Positions 688 to 63,538 of a DNA stretch of 64,000 nt are shown here, piece by piece. The notes beneath the pieces were generated by a model. That model saw only the letters and a list, made by a program, of their open reading frames with translations. It was not told the origin of the DNA and made no database searches. The position numbers and the translations under genes were made by a program. This DNA comes from Gammaproteobacteria bacterium. Lineage in GTDB: Bacteria; Pseudomonadota; Gammaproteobacteria; JAURND01. Each line of letters opens with the position of its first letter. Position 1 is the stretch's first letter. Where the stretch lies: positions 229,386-293,385 of the forward strand of contig DASZWJ010000019.1 of NCBI GenBank assembly GCA_035546635.1, written 5' to 3'.

Positions 688-737
688 GTTAATCACTGTA
701 ACCCCCTCTCCCCTTGTGGGAGAGGGGATATAGTGCT
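688..737. repeat. REP-like palindromic element, family A. Core is CCCCTCTCCCC-TTGTG-GGAGAGGGG, flanked by CACTGTAA / TAGTGC.
   Basis: Perfect 10-bp inverted repeat around a 5-nt loop, read directly. The core TCCCCTTGTGGGAG or its reverse complement recurs at 7899, 8029, 14666, 5318 and 26137. Confidence 0.7.
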
Positions 738-846
738 TTGCCGGACACCTATGCACAATTTAAAGATGCTTAGCAAGAGGCAGCCCATTCAGCAATTTCT
801 CCAAGCTGTGCTATCATCGTTCATTTTCACCCTGAACTTAAAAATT

Positions 847-2184
847 ATGTCACAAAAACTCTACATCAAAACCTTCGGCTGCCAGATGAACGAATACGAT
901 TCATCTAAAATGGTGGATGTGTTAAAAAACCATGCGGAAATGACCTTAACCGATACCCCTGAAGAAGCCGATATCCTATTACTGAATACGTGCTCCATCC
1001 GTGAAAAAGCCCAAGAAAAAGTGTTTTCCGATTTAGGTCGTTGGCGGCAATTAAAAACGGTGAAGCCTGAGTTAATTATTGGCGTGGGAGGATGCGTTGC
1101 CAGCCAGGAAGGGGAGCAGATTATTAAACGCGCACCATTTGTAGACTTGGTGTTTGGTCCGCAGACCCTGCACCGCCTGCCGGACATGCTCAAGCAACGT
1201 CAAGATACCCATAAGCCAGTCGTGGATATCTCGTTTCCAGAAATTGAGAAATTCGATAACCTACCAGAGCCCAAGGCCAATGGTGCTGCCGCAATGGTTT
1301 CCATTATGGAAGGCTGCAGCAAATATTGCAGCTTTTGTGTAGTGCCTTACACCCGGGGCGAAGAAATCAGTCGCCCATTTGATGATGTGATCTATGAAAT
1401 TGTCAAATTGGCAGAACAAGGGGTACGAGAAGTTACGTTGCTGGGACAGAATGTCAATGATTACCGCGGCCTCATGCATACTGACGGTAAAGCGTCTTTA
1501 GCATTACTCATTCATTATGTGGCTGCTATTCCTAGCATAGAGCGCATCCGCTTTACTACTTCGCATCCATTGGCTTTTTCAGATGACTTGATTGAAGCCT
1601 ATGCGACAGAACCGAAATTAGCTAATCACCTGCACTTACCGGTACAAAGTGGCTCAGACCGCATATTAGCTGCTATGAAACGTGGTTACACCACTTTAGA
1701 ATACAAAGCCAAAATTCGAAAACTACGCAAAGTCAGGCCGGATATCAGCATCACCTCAGACTTCATTGTCGGCTTTCCAGGCGAGACCGAAGCCGATTTT
1801 ATGGCCACTATGAATTTGATTGCTGAAGTCGGGTTTGATGATTCCTTCAGCTTTGTCTATAGCAAACGCCCAGGTACTCCAGCGGCACAACTATCGGATG
1901 ATGTGTCACTTGCGTTGAAGAAACAGCGTTTAAAACTATTACAAGAACGACTACGCCTACAGGGTAGTCACATCAGTGATGCCATGGTTGGCACCGAACA
2001 AAAAGTGTTAGTCGATATTCCGGCTGAACCCGATAAAGTGCTGCAGTTATCCGGCCGCACTGAAAACAATCGCACAGTTAAGTTTGCGGCCAATTCTGAA
2101 CAAATCAAGACGTTACCCGGTCAAATCATTGATATCAGAATCACTGCAGCTTCAAGACATATTCTAAATGGAACAATAGAATGA
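847..2184 (+). CDS. miaB: tRNA-2-methylthio-N6-dimethylallyladenosine synthase MiaB (radical-SAM methylthiotransferase)
   Basis: [19 protein letters not shown]... MTTase N-terminal domain, the radical-SAM CxxxCxxC motif ([15 protein letters not shown]) and a TRAM C-terminus. The ATG at 847 matches the MiaB N-terminus, so the track's upstream extension from 733 is unlikely. Confidence 0.93.
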
Positions 2185-3149
2185 AAAAACCCAGGCACAC
2201 CCTAGAAATGACTTTAACACCTTTTGATAACAAAAGACTCGCTGATCTTTGCGGACAATTTGATGAACACTTGCATCAAATTGAGCGTTACTGGGGTGTA
2301 GAAATCAATAATCGCGGCAATGTGTTTCAAATTATTGGCACTAAACGCTCTGTTAACAAAACCGAAGCCATATTGACGCGACTATTTGAGGAAACCGCTC
2401 ATCCAAATCAGGTCAATCTCGCCAAAATCCACGTATTACTACAAGCCATAGACCAGCAAAGCGAACATAAAAAACCCCCACCAGATTACAATGAATTTGT
2501 CATTAAAACGCGTTTGGTTAAAATTCGTCCGCGCAATCCTAATCAATTTCATTATATTAAAAATATTCAGAGCCATGATATCAGTTTTGGGGTGGGGCCT
2601 TCAGGCACAGGTAAAACTTATTTGGCTGTCGCTGAAGCGGTAACTTCTCTAGAAAATGATAAGGTCCAGCGCATTATTTTGGTGCGTCCGGCTGTAGAAG
2701 CTGGAGAGCGTTTAGGATTTTTACCAGGAGATATGGCGCAAAAAGTCGATCCCTATCTTCGTCCTTTATACGATGCTTTATATGAAATGCTAGGTATAGA
2801 GCAGGTGGATAAGCTGATAGAGCGGAATATTATCGAGGTTGCACCGCTGGCCTATATGCGGGGTAGAACCTTGAATGAAGCATTTATTATTCTGGATGAG
2901 GCGCAAAATACCACACGTGAACAAATGAAAATGTTCTTAACCCGTATTGGTTTTGGTTCTAAAGCCGTCATTACCGGCGATATTACGCAGATTGATTTGC
3001 CTAAAAATGAATTTTCCGGTCTGCGCCATGCCATTGCTGTATTAAATGAGATCAAAGATATACACTTTACGTTTTTTCAGGCGCGCGATGTAGTGCGCCA
3101 TCCTATTGTTCAATTAATTATTCAAGCTTACGAAAAAGCCGAGAAATGA
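2181..3149 (+). CDS. ybeZ: PhoH-like ATPase (YbeZ)
   Basis: Walker [15 protein letters not shown] and the PhoH family signature. The ATGA start/stop overlap with miaB indicates a conserved miaB-ybeZ-ybeY operon. Confidence 0.9.
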
Positions 3150-3613
3150 CGTTACGCCTACACTTGCAACATGCTACCTCGTTAAAACCACTGCCTAGCA
3201 GGCCGCAATTCCGACGTTGGATATTGGCAGCTTTGGCTGGGGCTAAAAAATTTCCTCTTGAATCACCGAGAGAACTCACGATTCGCTTGGTAGATGAAGC
3301 GGAAAGCGCTGAATTGAATAGTACTTACCGACACAAAAAAGGACCTACAAATGTGCTTTCTTTTGTGTTTGATTCTCCGTCTGAAGTAAATATCCCAATA
3401 TATTTGGGAGACCTAGTCATCTGCGCACCTTTGGTGTTAACAGAGGCAGAACAACAGCAAAAGCCTATACTTGCCCACTTTGCTCACCTGACTATTCATG
3501 GAGTCTTGCATTTATTGGGTTATGACCATGAAACGGAACAAGATGCTAATGTAATGGAAAATCTGGAGACGACTATTTTAGGGCAATTGAAGATTGCAGA
3601 TCCATATGCCTAA
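3146..3613 (+). CDS. ybeY: Endoribonuclease YbeY (16S rRNA maturation)
   Basis: Conserved metal-binding motif [12 protein letters not shown]. Overlaps the ybeZ stop. Confidence 0.9.
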
Positions 3614-3711
3614 CCTAGCTGTCATCCTCTGAATATAAAAAAGATGCAGAACATCGCACTCACTGCTACAATCCGTAAAAAATAGAATCAATCTACAGGG
3701 AGTATCGCGGT

Positions 3712-61756: not shown

Positions 61757-61767
61757 AGAAAAATGTT

Positions 61768-62532
61768 ATGGCCGAGAAAAATATTCCCGACGATGAATTA
61801 TATATTCTCCGTCACAAAAATGGCATTATGCTGATTGATGATAAAGAAATACAACAGTATAAAAATCTATCTAAAATGCCAGATAAACTTTATACAGTAT
61901 CCGATTTATTCAAATACCCATTTTCTATTTATTTTTTAAATCAAAAGAGTCAGTTATCAAACTCTAATCCTGTCAATTTAGAATTTATACAAGCAGATTC
62001 ATTAAAGCAGGTTTATGGAAAAAGCGCTTTTGATATTTTTAAAGAGGAATCCACCTTACAACTGATTAAAAATGACACAAAAGTAATGCAAGCACAGAAA
62101 AAACTTTTTTTTGATGAACAACTGCCTGATAAACAGGGTTCCTATTTTAATGGTATTACCATCAAATTACCCTGGTATAGTCAAAAAAATGCAATCCTTG
62201 GTGTATTAGGATTAACCATTTTTTGGGGTCAGGGCTCTCCAGCAAGCTCTTTCTCATTAATTGATGAATTGGAATTTTTAAATGATAAAAATGGCATTAC
62301 CGGCAGCTTACCTGGTGCGCAATTAGGGAATAACTACCTCACCCAACGAGAGCTTGAAATACTGCAACATATTATTGAAGGAAGGCCTGCAAGAACAATT
62401 GCAGAAATTCTGGTTATCTCAAGACGCACCGTTGAAACCCATATAGAACATATCAAAAATAAAATTGGCGTAACCAGCAAACCCGAATTGATAGAAAAGG
62501 CGTTAGATTTTTATCGATCTTCTTCTTCCTGA
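61768..62532 (+). CDS. LuxR-family (GerE-type HTH) transcriptional regulator with an uncharacterised N-terminal domain (orphan/solo)
   Basis: C-terminal LTQRELEILQHIIEGRPARTIAEILVISRRTVETHIEHIKNKIGV. No receiver-domain aspartate context and no recognisable autoinducer-binding motif in the N-terminal ~180 aa. Confidence 0.7.
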   Translation: MAEKNIPDDELYILRHKNGIMLIDDKEIQQYKNLSKMPDKLYTVSDLFKYPFSIYFLNQKSQLSNSNPVNLEFIQADSLKQVYGKSAFDIFKEESTLQLIKNDTKVMQAQKKLFFDEQLPDKQGSYFNGITIKLPWYSQKNAILGVLGLTIFWGQGSPASSFSLIDELEFLNDKNGITGSLPGAQLGNNYLTQRELEILQHIIEGRPARTIAEILVISRRTVETHIEHIKNKIGVTSKPELIEKALDFYRSSSS

Positions 62533-62593
62533 ATTTTGCTCTCATCCTTCTCTTGTGCTCATGATGACAGCAAAACTCAAGATGACAATACAA

Positions 62594-63376
62594 TTACGAC
62601 TCCTTAGCCATTTGCTCCAACCGACCCAATGTATCTTTATAAATTCTCGTGCTTATACCGAATTTGCTAGCAAAAGGATTGCTCAATATAAAGATAATCA
62701 TTAAGAGGGAAGTGATCGTGTAAATTAATGCTCCGGTTAAAACCATCTGCGCCCAAAGACGATCCATGCCAAAAAAATAAGAAATACCAACGACTACAAA
62801 TCCCAGCATAACCAGTAACATTAATGGATTTTCTAGTTTAGGTTGTGTAGCAATAAAAATTCTTAAGCGTCGATTTTCCCGCAATTTTGCTAAATGCTCT
62901 AAAGAGTTAGAATAAATAACCTGTTCTTTGGGTGATTGCACATCCATGTTCAAGTAAATTCTCTGTAATTTCTCAAGAATCTCTGCAACTTGTGGTTCTT
63001 CTTGGTGCCTAATCATTTTCGGCCATTCTTTGGTAATAATAGCGTCTGTGTATTCAATGAGCGTTTGTTGAATACTATTCCGAACTTCTGGTGAAAATCC
63101 CGGCGCCAGCTGCGCTAAAGTCAACAAATCAGTGGTTTCTATTTTAGCTTCCCTGTAACTTTCCCCAACCTCATTGAGTACCATAGAAAATGTAAACGCC
63201 AATACCACGGCATAAATTACGCCAATTTGCAAAAAAATAGGGAATGCCACTTCATGATGAGAAGTTAGAAAATGTAAAGCGACCCAATTTCTGATGACTG
63301 CCACTAAGGCTGAACCTATAATAGCCGCTAGAAGCGCAACACTGATAACGGGATACTGTGAAAAAAAATTCATCAA
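62594..63376 (-). CDS. Hypothetical membrane protein (N- and C-terminal TM helices, possibly DUF4239-like)
   Basis: Hydrophobic segments at residues ~8-30, ~45-65 and ~190-245. No catalytic motif recognised. Confidence 0.4.
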   Translation of the reverse strand: MMNFFSQYPVISVALLAAIIGSALVAVIRNWVALHFLTSHHEVAFPIFLQIGVIYAVVLAFTFSMVLNEVGESYREAKIETTDLLTLAQLAPGFSPEVRNSIQQTLIEYTDAIITKEWPKMIRHQEEPQVAEILEKLQRIYLNMDVQSPKEQVIYSNSLEHLAKLRENRRLRIFIATQPKLENPLMLLVMLGFVVVGISYFFGMDRLWAQMVLTGALIYTITSLLMIIFILSNPFASKFGISTRIYKDTLGRLEQMAKES

Positions 63377-63454
63377 TGAATACCTGAAGCTCCATAATTA
63401 GAAGCTCTATATATCATAAATATATAAAGAAAAGCTACTCTTAGCATAAACGTC

Positions 63455-63538
63455 TCCCGGCAGGAGGCCGGGATCCAGGTCGCAGGAAAGCGAAACTGTG
63501 ATGTCCCTATCAACTGGATTTCGGCTTCCTGCCGGGAC
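63455..63538. repeat. REP-like palindromic element, family D, second copy
   Basis: TCCCGGCAGGAGGCCGGGATCCAGGTCGCAGGAAAGCGAAAC…CTGGATTTCGGCTTCCTGCCGGGA. Its core is about 85% identical to 37483-37562. Confidence 0.7.

Follow-up and report, generated by a model that had tools for sequence, protein, structure and literature searches.

The gene junctions of the 64,000-nucleotide stretch of DNA analysed here (the window), which comes from an uncultured gammaproteobacterium probably related to Legionellales, carry hairpin repeats of two mutually unrelated kinds, both of which have been described before. Judged by sequence, CGTC-tagged REPs make up most of the elements (families C, D and E, fragments included), and the remaining ones resemble the BoxC repeats of E. 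coli. The best explanation as a whole, to which we give a probability of about 0.68, is that CGTC-tagged REPs of the Ssn type (C, D, E) stand beside C-tract/G-tract hairpins (A, B). The original prediction had described at least five families of dispersed REP-like repeats, apparently lineage-specific and not matching the REP/BIME or RPE families. The dispersed REP-like repeats stand, but only two kinds, both known, remain of the five families: C, D and E have the (C/T)GTC tag and the tags-outward dimers of the CGTC-REP superfamily, the core of A can be aligned with E. coli BoxC/TMECO, and C arms turn up in no fewer than a dozen phyla, with Legionella massiliensis and L. maceachernii among the carriers.

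Every copy listed earlier was found in place by direct reading, and the prediction was correct on density, roughly one element per 4 kb, as well as on placement at gene boundaries. About 20 elements lie within or at the edge of intergenic DNA, which makes up 9% of the window. Most are directly downstream of ORFs, several families recur inside the window, and six elements overlap ORF 3' ends, contributing the last codons and the stop codon; in-frame insertion inside an ORF was not seen, only 3' ends being affected. The palindromes are dispersed elements and not local terminators; terminator-like sites are as frequent as expected by chance and overlap an element only once, on the antisense strand. 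Hairpins were in excess, with 12 scoring at least 11 against 0-5 (mean ∼1.5) in 20 dinucleotide shuffles and 7 scoring at least 15 against none. In addition, the C-arm pattern matched the window 7 times at up to 2 mismatches (0.11 expected), the A core 4 times at up to 3 mismatches (0.01 expected), and the dimers folded as single strands gave z-scores of -4 to -12. Beyond the earlier list, we found a C monomer (C1), a hairpin read as a collapsed C dimer (C4), an eroded C copy (C5) and two additional palindromes at 31661-31775 and 35487-35541. The elements are as follows, with the strand where one was assigned and differing earlier bounds in brackets.

A1, 694-735 (688-737): BoxC-like CCCCCTCTCCCC-TTGT-GGGAGAGGGG within an outer stem CACTGTA/TATAGTG; z -5.8.
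A2 and A3, 7880-8054 (7888-7925, 8011-8052): inverted pair of family-A units between the convergent ftsK and rdgC.
A4, 14638-14724 (14652-14688): CCTTCTCCCC-TTGT-GGGAGAAGG hairpin inside a longer palindrome with GGCTGTAAGA repeats, between a rluC-like gene and the thiC TPP riboswitch; z -8.5.
B1, 5300-5360 (5303-5360): outer stem CTTAACCTCTCCC/GGGAGAGGTTAAAG around ATCCC-ACAA-GGGGAT and TCCCTTCGG; z -4.8.
B2, 26110-26187 (26111-26186): shares the B1 core (91% over 53 nt), its outer stem being 26 nt long; z -12.0.
C1, 29080-29110, plus strand: single hairpin unit TGTC-ATCCTGGGC-GTAA-GTGAAGGAT-CTCC, coding for the final residues of LpxK (CHPGRK) and the stop codon.
C2, 46938-47034 (46941-47033): family-C HH dimer (tags outward) between hisD and hisC, coding for the HisD tail FHPEH and the stop codon; z -11.2.
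C3, 49819-49913 (49821-49913): family-C HH dimer between hisH and hisA, coding for the HisH tail LVLSESEGSP and the stop codon; z -9.6.
C4, 55172-55205: single hairpin with both outer tags, TGTC-ATCCTTCGC-TTGC-GCTCAGGAC, where two convergent genes overlap at their 3' ends.
C5, about 62538-62568: eroded C-like hairpin with 2 mismatches to the C-arm pattern, between a convergent luxR-type gene and a bestrophin-like gene.
C fragment, 3617-3636 (3617-3640), plus strand: CTAGCTGTCATCCTCTGAAT, the tag and 5' half-stem, immediately 3' of the ybeY stop codon.
C fragments, 31609-31645 (31601-31640), plus strand: CTAGCTGTCATCCTGAGAAT then GGCTGTCATCCAAG, 3' of the stop codon of a comEA-like gene.
D1, 37476-37561 (37483-37562): CGTC-tagged HH dimer, CGTC-CCGGC...GTCGGGA-TCCAG, overlapping the cmk 3' end (tail RPGRESGSS and stop codon); z -4.0.
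D2, 63451-63540 (63455-63538): CGTC-tagged HH dimer, CGTC-TCCCGGC-AGGAG-GCCGGGA-TCCAG, between divergent genes; z -6.6.
D3, about 34882-35040 (34904-35009): longer, each inverted end with YGTCGTC tags, CGTC-GTCCCGC...GCGGGAT-CCAG; a second copy lies ∼5.3 kb past the right end of the window.
E, 44619-44702 (44614-44710): HH dimer of NTS/dRS3-like hairpins between msrA and hisG, with arms TGTC-ATTCCCACC-TA-GGTGGGAAT-CTA and TGTC-ATTCCTGC-GTAG-GCGGGAAT-CTA; z -7.1.

The unit of family C, YGTCAT-CCTGRGC-loop-GAAGGATCTCC, is 29-30 nt long and is present in at least a dozen phyla, Legionella among them. Its boundaries were drawn from 126 C-arm matches in many phyla. Over the six positions 5' of the pattern, the matches read Y-G-T-C-A-T, with 82-98% agreement at each of the last five and T (63%) or C (23%) at the first, and conservation ends abruptly on either side of the unit. 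A tags-outward partner lay within 200 nt in 67 of these matches and a tags-inward partner in 7, with spacers of 0 to 57 nt between partners. The stem contains a conserved tandem G.A/A.G step and closes on a 3-nt loop. Hairpins selected on nothing but the tag and the pair of GA steps were 92% paired, compared with 22-52% when the partner was slid, and double changes were found in four of the seven pairs (53 cells), a result reached by 0 of 500 shuffles.

We assigned C, D and E to the CGTC REPs because their tag, stem and dimer layout, read straight from the sequence, match the published definition (Di Nocera, De Gregorio and Rocco 2013, BMC Genomics 14:522; PMC3733652). In the shared unit, a 7-9 bp stem with a short loop is joined to an unpaired (C/T)GTC tag and to a short tail, and the units usually form inverted pairs with tags outward, giving palindromes of 85-160 nt. 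The published repeats likewise have an unpaired CGTC/TGTC tag, a short stem-loop and a short tail, are for the most part HH dimers, tags outside, whose spacers measure 20-100 nt, lie downstream of ORFs and between unidirectional or convergent genes, and occur as several families per genome in which singletons are dimer remnants (PMC3733652). The superfamily includes Neisseria dRS3/NTS and Rickettsia RPE-4 and RPE-6 (Di Nocera 2013, PMC3733652). However, they differ from the C stem with its G.A/A.G step and 3-nt loop and from the D stem of 7 bp, whose first pair is not A-T, and we place C, D and E at the superfamily level and not within CGTC-1 to CGTC-4, the four families defined for these mainly alphaproteobacterial repeats as far as that source outlines them (PMC3733652).

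Family E resembles the Neisseria repeats. One of its arms fits the dRS3 definition ATTCCC-N8-GGGAAT exactly, the two arms agree with NTS at 22/28 and 24/28 positions, and a nearly identical layout is found in Legionella massiliensis. The strict NTS consensus at up to 3 mismatches had no match in the window, and the published degenerate pattern for Ssn-related motifs (SRM) had none among the window elements, missing C, D and E. Unlike NTS, C is a distinct hairpin type spread over many phyla. In the sequence data searched, counterparts were lacking for B, D, F and G, and for these four only.

Families A and B are read as C-tract/G-tract hairpins, A being of the BoxC/PIT type. The A core agrees with E. 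coli TMECO/BoxC at 31/36 positions in A3 and at 33/35 positions, third G-strand included, in a copy from the relative L001. The A2 and A3 arms (38 nt, 92% complementary) are separated by a 96-nt spacer, and a conserved flank GCACTGTA(A) stands one base from the family-A stem. The original prediction of a submotif shared by A and B was right as to the motif (TCCCACAAGGGGA, 13/14 bases); the common origin drawn from it is plausible only, and B is plausibly grouped with A solely through this 13-nt motif. We know of no mobilising enzyme for this hairpin type. Like the intrastrand-triplex repeats BoxC/PIT/TMECO of E. coli (Holder et al. 2015, NAR 43:10126; PMC4666352), family A has a core CCCTCTCCC-loop-GGGAGAGGG, to which A3 and the copies in relatives add a TTA(C)-G-rich third strand, and is intergenic, sometimes in inverted pairs, with no associated transposase. 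The differences are that most A copies in the window are without the third strand, which A3 retains, that A has the extra flank, and that the interior of B is different.

The elements are insertions, since relatives have compact his operons or different elements at the corresponding junctions. In L123 and L125 the his-operon junctions overlap or are a few nt long; the window, with its two C dimers in the operon, L001 and L124 carry different elements at corresponding junctions, and in L001 one element is nested within another. In the same strain, short-read contigs are interrupted within A1, within B1 and at a second D3 copy.

Among the ORFs within 1.5 kb of C arms at genome loci, the only recurrent non-housekeeping family was a single-domain GIY-YIG protein (PF01541), in the layout element-gene-element. 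In the reverse test, 80 metagenome loci were fetched by the GIY-YIG protein alone: a C-type hairpin lay within 300 nt of the ∼90-aa gene in 55 of them, on both sides in 29, and hairpin density fell from 2.49 per kb close to the gene to 0.12 per kb at distances over 600 nt. The C-associated protein shares 47% identity (E 2e-18) with the only homologue in N. gonorrhoeae, whose gene has NTS dimers on its flanks and is taken to be the ssnA of Chenal et al. (2025, Nat Commun 16:2388; PMC11893778). In Aeromonas, Planktothrix and Novosphingobium, each homologue has a CGTC-tagged hairpin type of its own on its flanks. SsnA binds NTS hairpins, cleaving single-stranded DNA upstream of them, and restriction of transforming single-stranded DNA is its demonstrated role in Neisseria; more generally, such hairpins are the binding and cleavage motif of small single-domain GIY-YIG Ssn nucleases, which cut single-stranded DNA next to the hairpin, and ssn genes are themselves hairpin-flanked, motif-gene-motif, as with C (PMC11893778). 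Ssn-related motifs are abundant in host-associated bacteria (PMC11893778).

A GIY-YIG partner is shown by our data for C only and is suggested by the literature for E and by resemblance alone for D, and for this organism we infer both a cognate nuclease and Ssn mobilisation. To our knowledge, nobody has demonstrated transposition by Ssn. Copies of C, D and E would have been seeded by an Ssn-family nuclease whose gene lies outside the window or has since been lost (the 64-kb window contains no GIY-YIG gene, tyrosine transposase or IS), and whose substrate would be hairpins extruded in single-stranded DNA. Selection would then spare only copies at tolerated sites, namely gene ends and intergenic DNA. 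There the elements are co-transcribed with neighbouring genes and, in six cases, provide the last codons and the stop.

Other sources of mobility are conceivable. The original prediction pointed to classical REP/REPIN sequences moved by a RAYT encoded elsewhere in the genome. GTAG REPs and REPINs with RAYT transposases, reportedly the subject of work by Nunvar in 2010 and by Bertels and Rainey in 2011, share with our elements the unpaired-tag hairpin, the inverted doublets and the presence of a single-copy gene that has repeats of its own on its flanks. The window palindromes are short, intergenic and often inverted pairs, the family-A flank could be a degenerate tag, and repeats of the GTAG and the CGTC kind reportedly occur together in Coxiella burnetii. 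We nevertheless consider this origin unlikely. The tags of C, D and E are YGTC, not GTAG; the A flank, GTAA or GTAT, is outside the published GTAG variants; no RAYT with CGTC units at its flanks was found by Di Nocera (PMC3733652); and no Y1 transposase was found among the Pfam-scanned ORFs of the window, where the his genes except HisD were identified only by synteny with L001. Because the protein repeatedly flanked by C hairpins is a GIY-YIG nuclease and not a tyrosine (HUH, Y1) transposase, a RAYT is probably the wrong partner to seek for C, D and E. Classical MITEs, which derive by deletion from DDE-type insertion sequences and which a full-length IS moves in trans, would account for dimers of 85-175 nt with inverted ends, and Coxiella has the MITE families QMITE1 and QMITE2. 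This is the reading we find hardest to credit: reading the sequence revealed no target-site duplication at C2, C3, D2 or E, the conserved unit is a 29-30 nt hairpin and not a terminal inverted repeat, partner spacers vary, the window has no IS, and the gene between such hairpins is the ∼90-aa GIY-YIG gene.

Two further alternatives dispense with mobility. Locally evolved regulatory hairpins (intrinsic terminators, attenuators or mRNA-stabilising stem-loops) would suit the stable folds and the position of most elements directly downstream of ORFs, and REP hairpins stabilise upstream mRNA. Such an origin is very unlikely, given a C unit with sharp boundaries across many phyla, the repetition of several families within the window, orthologous junctions that are empty or hold other families, terminator-like sites at chance frequency, and the position of C2 and C3 inside the his operon; a secondary effect of the elements on RNA may exist. 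The CGTC hairpins could also be immobile, host-maintained Ssn recognition sites that restrict or regulate incoming single-stranded DNA and arose by local duplication and recombination. The one activity demonstrated for SsnA is a hairpin-specific cleavage of single-stranded DNA that modulates transformation, and the window encodes a ComEA-like protein and CinA. This account is improbable: the independent presence of different families at corresponding operon junctions of related genomes, and nested copies, need de novo insertion, and the element-gene-element layout resembles an insertion sequence. It is not exclusive of the mobile-repeat reading.

Two further systems offer parallels. By description, QMITE1 and QMITE2 of Coxiella burnetii are likewise small non-coding Legionellales repeats altering ORF ends, but the published account presents them as MITE families of larger size and places direct repeats on the flanks of full-length QMITE2 copies (Wachter et al. 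2018; PMC5896051). Rickettsia palindromic elements, repeats of an intracellular-type bacterium of which RPE-4 and RPE-6 are CGTC-type (Di Nocera 2013, PMC3733652), also enter coding sequence and add residues, whereas the window elements alter ORF 3' ends only, creating new C-terminal tails and stops.

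The repeats lie in a window of ~42% G+C in which housekeeping genes are tightly packed, namely mfd, miaB, phoH, ybeY, ftsK, rdgC, rne, lpxK, lnt, rpsA, cmk and mutS, together with the his operon and the thi genes, which a TPP riboswitch precedes. Only ~5.7 kb (9%) of the window is intergenic, and the nearest named relatives of its HisD are found in Legionellales. Every copy listed in the original prediction, which had named at least five palindromic REP-like families (A to E), was located at its coordinates, and a mechanical repeat search recovered the same families together with extra copies. 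Long hairpins exceeded chance, with 12 in the window against 0-5 in dinucleotide shuffles, and 7 against 0 at a stricter score; the C-arm pattern matched 7 times compared with 0.11 expected. Folded as single strands, the dimers reached z of -4 to -12. Among the tagged elements, including the additional members of family C, are the following.

29080-29110, C1, a C monomer (additional member)
34882-35040, D3, a D dimer, longer than originally predicted
44619-44702, the E dimer
46938-47034, C2, a C dimer
49819-49913, C3, a C dimer
55172-55205, one hairpin with both tags (additional member), which we read as a collapsed C dimer
near 62538-62568, an eroded C copy (additional member)
directly 3' of the ybeY and comEA-like stop codons, two 20-nt remnants of tag plus half-stem, CTAGCTGTCATCCT..GAAT

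The coding region of hisH also holds a C-like stretch, TTTCATCCTGAGCGTTCGGGAG, at 49758-49787, 35 nt upstream of C3, which may be an older remnant absorbed into the gene. A generic search for hairpins with a YGTC tag was dropped, its 49 matches being mostly noise in coding sequence.

All arms of C, D and E follow one plan, consisting of (C/T)GTC, a hairpin and a short tail, and in the dimers the arms are inverted with the tags outside. This tags-outward (HH) arrangement holds in all of C2, C3, D1, D2, D3 and E.

C arm, TGTC-ATCCTGAGC-GAAA-GCGAAGGAT-CTCC
D arm, CGTC-TCCCGGC-AGGAG-GCCGGGA-TCCAG
E arm, TGTC-ATTCCCACC-TA-GGTGGGAAT-CTA

The terminal unpaired tag is thus TGTC or CGTC, and TGTC is accepted in the CGTC superfamily. 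The general plan is that of CGTC-tagged REPs, which have a stem of 8-9 bp whose first pairs are A-T and then T-A, a loop of 4-5 nt and a short, unpaired 3' tail, mostly CCA. They occur mostly as HH dimers, and in Coxiella they coexist with other REP types; Neisseria dRS3 is one of them, as are Rickettsia RPE-4 and RPE-6 (PMC3733652). The stem start is found in E (ATTCCC...GGGAAT; stem 8-9, loop 2-4) and in C (AT...AT; 9 positions including two G.A steps, loop 3-4), and not in D, whose 7-bp stems start from TC or GT and enclose loops of 5-8. The 3' tails read (T)CCAG in D, CTCC in C and CTA in E. The predicted repeats are real, and by their shared tag-hairpin-tail plan C, D and E merge into one kind instead of three separate families.

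We then compared the elements with the published definitions. The dRS3 definition ATTCCC-N8-GGGAAT has one exact match in the window, the E arm at 44623-44642. The consensus of NTS, the oriented form of dRS3 (CGTCATTCCCGCGMAVGCGGGAATCYRG), gave 0 window matches at up to 3 mismatches, and by hand count the two E arms agree with it at 22/28 and 24/28 positions. The pattern for Ssn-related motifs (SRM), HGTCWYN(0-2)YYVSBRHN(0-5)WNVSBRGN(0-2)RNCYNB, matched none of the window elements; its 1 window match lies within a coding region (shuffle mean 0.14). Since both the SRM pattern and the strict NTS consensus were unmatched, we class C, D and E with the CGTC-tagged REPs, working in the manner of Ssn-related motifs but no members of them by the published SRM test. 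Family D probably belongs to the same system as C and E, judging by its arms. A literature search by sequence string returned nothing on the C or D cores. Rfam at gathering thresholds reported the TPP riboswitch alone in the window, so none of the elements falls into a curated RNA family.

The original prediction had regarded the families as apparently lineage-specific, which does not hold for family C. When CCTGRGC-N5/6-GAAGGATCTCC was run against 185,579 species genomes, at least 120 blocks matched, and the matches listed come from Acidobacteriota, Chloroflexota, Planctomycetota, Bacteroidota, Bacillota, Cyanobacteriota, Patescibacteria, Verrucomicrobiota, Gemmatimonadota, Nitrospirota and Alpha- and Gammaproteobacteria. 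The MAG nearest to the window is among them, as are Legionella massiliensis and L. maceachernii; in L. massiliensis, one C dimer and one E-like dimer share an 8-kb block with an A-like hairpin. In the 126 C arms among the matches listed, the hexamer directly 5' of the query, which lies outside it, reads Y-G-T-C-A-T, and no conservation extends past either end of the arms. Therefore, the C unit is a sharply bounded, tagged hairpin of 29-30 nt. A tags-outward partner lies within 200 nt in 67/126 of these arms, and a tags-inward one in 7/126.

For a subset of this kind of repeat a protein partner has recently been described. In 2013, CGTC REPs were said to be without a dedicated enzyme (PMC3733652), and in 2025 the NTS subset was linked to the Ssn nuclease (PMC11893778). 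SsnA is a 94-aa single-domain GIY-YIG protein that binds NTS and cuts adjacent single-stranded DNA; ssn genes typically have their own motif on the flanks, and homologues number in the thousands (Chenal et al. 2025, PMC11893778). Hairpin-specific cutting of single-stranded DNA by Ssn is taken here from that literature (PMC11893778). Our search for a partner of C was independent of the motif of Chenal et al.; the ORFs within 1.5 kb of C arms were clustered. The sole recurrent non-housekeeping family beside the listed C arms was a single-domain GIY-YIG protein (PF01541), at 4 loci in different phyla. A Ruminococcaceae MAG shows the order C dimer, GIY-YIG gene, C dimer, C dimer, and in an alphaproteobacterial MAG a C dimer adjoins the GIY-YIG start codon. 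The largest ORF cluster near C arms consisted of SDR proteins. We set it aside as chance, because SDRs are a very common protein family.

The association was then approached from the protein side, by fetching 80 metagenome loci by the GIY-YIG protein alone and allowing the C-type hairpin up to 2 substitutions. Such a hairpin lay within 300 nt of the GIY-YIG gene in 55/80 loci, on both sides in 29, and hairpin density was 2.49/kb near the gene compared with 0.12/kb more than 600 nt away. The C-associated protein shares 47% identity (E 2e-18) with the single N. gonorrhoeae homologue, whose gene is flanked by NTS dimers and which we take to be ssnA. Family C is thus associated with a GIY-YIG clade homologous to that gene. 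Against PDB and NCBIfam, the protein gave a weak UPF0213 match alone and no Ssn-named entry. Other homologues were found with the following flanking hairpins.

Aeromonas, NTS type
Planktothrix, CGTC-tagged hairpin ATTCTGAGTG-AAA-CGAAGAAT
Novosphingobium, CGTC-GCCCCGTG-CTTGA-CACGGGGC

As each homologue has its own CGTC-tagged hairpins, the hairpin type varies with the protein. The ssn-like GIY-YIG gene of Planktothrix agardhii lies with its flanking hairpins on plasmid p1 (18847-19131). It has an MmeI-type restriction-modification gene on one side and DISARM drmA on the other, which makes the region a defence island. Three PLSDB records labelled as plasmids (NZ_CP119140.1, NZ_CP119142.1 and NZ_AP026896.1; N. 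gonorrhoeae and Aeromonas caviae) measure 2.2-4.9 Mb and are taken to be whole chromosomes, a trap for plasmid statistics.

The hairpins beside GIY-YIG genes also allowed the structure of C to be examined. These were chosen on the tag and the two GA steps only, and the other seven stem positions were 92% paired, compared with 22-52% with the 3' partner slid. In four stem pairs both partners have changed; stem position 3, for instance, occurs as C-G, U-A and G-C. The observed covariation score was reached by 0/500 shuffles. The tandem G.A/A.G step itself, as a selection criterion, is unscorable for conservation. It accounts for the weak predicted stability of C; single C hairpins are not stable under nearest-neighbour rules (z near 0). 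We read the step as a protein-recognised feature, and compensatory changes around it are what is expected of a structure read by a protein.

Within the window, no GIY-YIG ORF was found by motif, phmmer or a custom HMM, and the same search of the loci through L125 matched only four, all from other phyla. Signs of a RAYT-type system were also sought. No Y1_Tnp domain or transposase occurs in the Pfam-scanned window ORFs outside the his operon, where the genes other than HisD were identified by synteny with L001, the window's closest relative, only. No Y1/HUH transposase (RAYT) family recurs among the listed loci with C arms, and a GTAG-type tag (GTAG/GYAG/GTRG/GTMG) is absent next to the stems, the tag being YGTC in C, D and E and GTAA or GTAT in A. 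An Ssn-type enzyme of this organism, which would be encoded outside the window or have been lost, probably generated the C, D and E copies of the window; they would arise by a single-strand cut-and-rejoin process.

Taken together, the window repeats are ordinary but instructive; they are of known kinds and form no new class. The one result worth pursuing is that family C goes together with a GIY-YIG clade of its own, which extends the Ssn link to a different, very widespread hairpin missed by the published search pattern. A bolder and still tentative reading, to which we give a probability of about 0.3, is that the family-C hairpin and its ~90-aa GIY-YIG clade form a pan-bacterial mobile system that is still active in this Legionellales-like lineage. 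In its autonomous form, the gene would stand between two hairpins; the window dimers would derive from this as non-autonomous copies, spread when single-stranded DNA is cut and rejoined under guidance of the hairpin. Such a system would resemble a REPtron-like transposon with a GIY-YIG nuclease in place of the HUH transposase, and in sister genomes it would have struck the same junctions of the his operon in independent events. To our knowledge, transposition by Ssn has been demonstrated by nobody. With different families at the same operon junctions, the sister genomes provide a natural setting in which to ask whether hairpins are moved by Ssn-type nucleases.

These junctions were compared between the window and four relatives, L001 and the relatives L123, L124 and L125.

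Content of his-operon junctions in the window and four relatives.
hisG/hisD: window, 8 nt; L001, 340 nt with a C dimer and an A-type pair; L123, 6 nt; L124, 12 nt; L125, 9 nt
hisD/hisC: window, C2; L001, a different long C-tract/G-tract palindrome; L123, 60 nt with a small C-run/G-run hairpin; L124, overlap; L125, overlap
hisC/hisB: window, none; L001, 15 nt; L123, 2 nt; L124, 227 nt with CGTCATTGCGAG-type hairpins; L125, 21 nt
hisH/hisA: window, C3; L001, a pair of C-tract/G-tract units; L123, overlap; L124, a CGTC dimer within the extended hisH end; L125, 1 nt

Since compact junctions are what the more distant relatives have in common, the filled ones are gains that arose independently. In L001, a long-armed CGTC-tagged dimer is nested within a family-C dimer (19985-20350). 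None of C2, C3, D2 and E shows a target-site duplication. In addition, other public runs hold the same strain, represented by three Logan contigs (SRR12170514, SRR12170517 and SRR12170511; 99.99-100% identity). The short-read contigs break within A1 (709) and within B1 (5335), and one stops at another D3-type copy, which lies ~5.3 kb past the window's right edge; such breaks are an effect of multi-copy repeats on assemblies. The repeats thus account for the breaks of short-read assemblies of this organism at these spots.

The elements also affect the annotation of the neighbouring genes. Six of them overlap the 3' ends of ORFs and provide the last codons and the stop codon.

14638-14651, repeat-supplied C-terminus and stop of an RluC-like protein
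29080-29100, LpxK tail CHPGRK
37532-37561, Cmk tail RPGRESGSS
46938-46956, HisD tail FHPEH
49819-49850, HisH tail LVLSESEGSP
55172-55201, nucleotidyl transferase tail LSSFACAQD

The conserved HisD core stops just before the element-encoded tail, and the repeats account for the odd C-terminal tails and shifted stops of HisD, HisH, LpxK and Cmk. C2 likewise accounts for a false upstream start of hisC; the ATG at 47029, within the right end of C2, opens the longest hisC ORF and was rejected, as orthologues align from 47098, the true start. Across the first 20 kb and the last 20 kb of the window, terminator-like sites were at chance level (20 observed for 20.2 expected, and 18 for 19.2), and the sole element with such a match was the E2 arm, antisense to the flanking genes.

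Families A and B are of another type. The A core CCCTCTCCC(C)-TTGT-GGGAGAGGG aligns with E. coli BoxC/PIT/TMECO, and its pyrimidine tract-loop-purine tract, CCCTCTCCC...GGGAGAGGG, recurs in four A copies with 0-2 mismatches compared with 0.01 expected. A3 agrees with TMECO/BoxC at 31/36 positions and the L001 copy at 33/35. In BoxC/PIT/TMECO, a third strand after a TTA-type linker permits an intrastrand triplex; the linker and third G-rich strand are kept in A3 (TTAC-GGAGGGG) and the L001 copy (TTA-GGGAGAGGG), and the strand is absent or degenerate in A1, A2, A4, B1 and B2. Unlike BoxC, family A has an extra conserved flank, GCACTGTA. An inverted pair of A occurs once (7880-8054, 175 nt). Family B shares TCCCACAAGGGGA with A and has an interior of its own. 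Searches of the plasmid collection with D2 and B2 returned nothing significant, and B, D and the further palindrome F had no match in any of the fetched loci, so no counterpart of B was found in either set. We know of no enzyme for the BoxC-type class, and none for A or B emerged in this analysis.

Several further features were observed in the window.

14810-14916 (+), the TPP riboswitch (RF00059, 74 bits) upstream of thiC, with A4 directly before it
31661-31775, a 115-nt palindrome (outer stem ~32 bp, z -10.8) between the comEA-like gene and lnt, enclosing CGTC-GGGTTCAT-GG-ATGAATCC-GTC and without a relative in any fetched locus
35487-35541, a perfect palindrome of 25 bp with core TCCGCGA-CTTGA-TCGCGGGA, lying between rpsA and lapA
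3712-5280 (+) and 55198-56775 (-), paralogous ORFs of ~520 aa with a methyltransferase domain and a weak protein-kinase match

The core of the palindrome at 35487-35541 recurs in the Legionella massiliensis locus (L031:4803-4830), beside a C dimer. The two ~520-aa methyltransferase/kinase-like ORFs, we note, resemble effectors.
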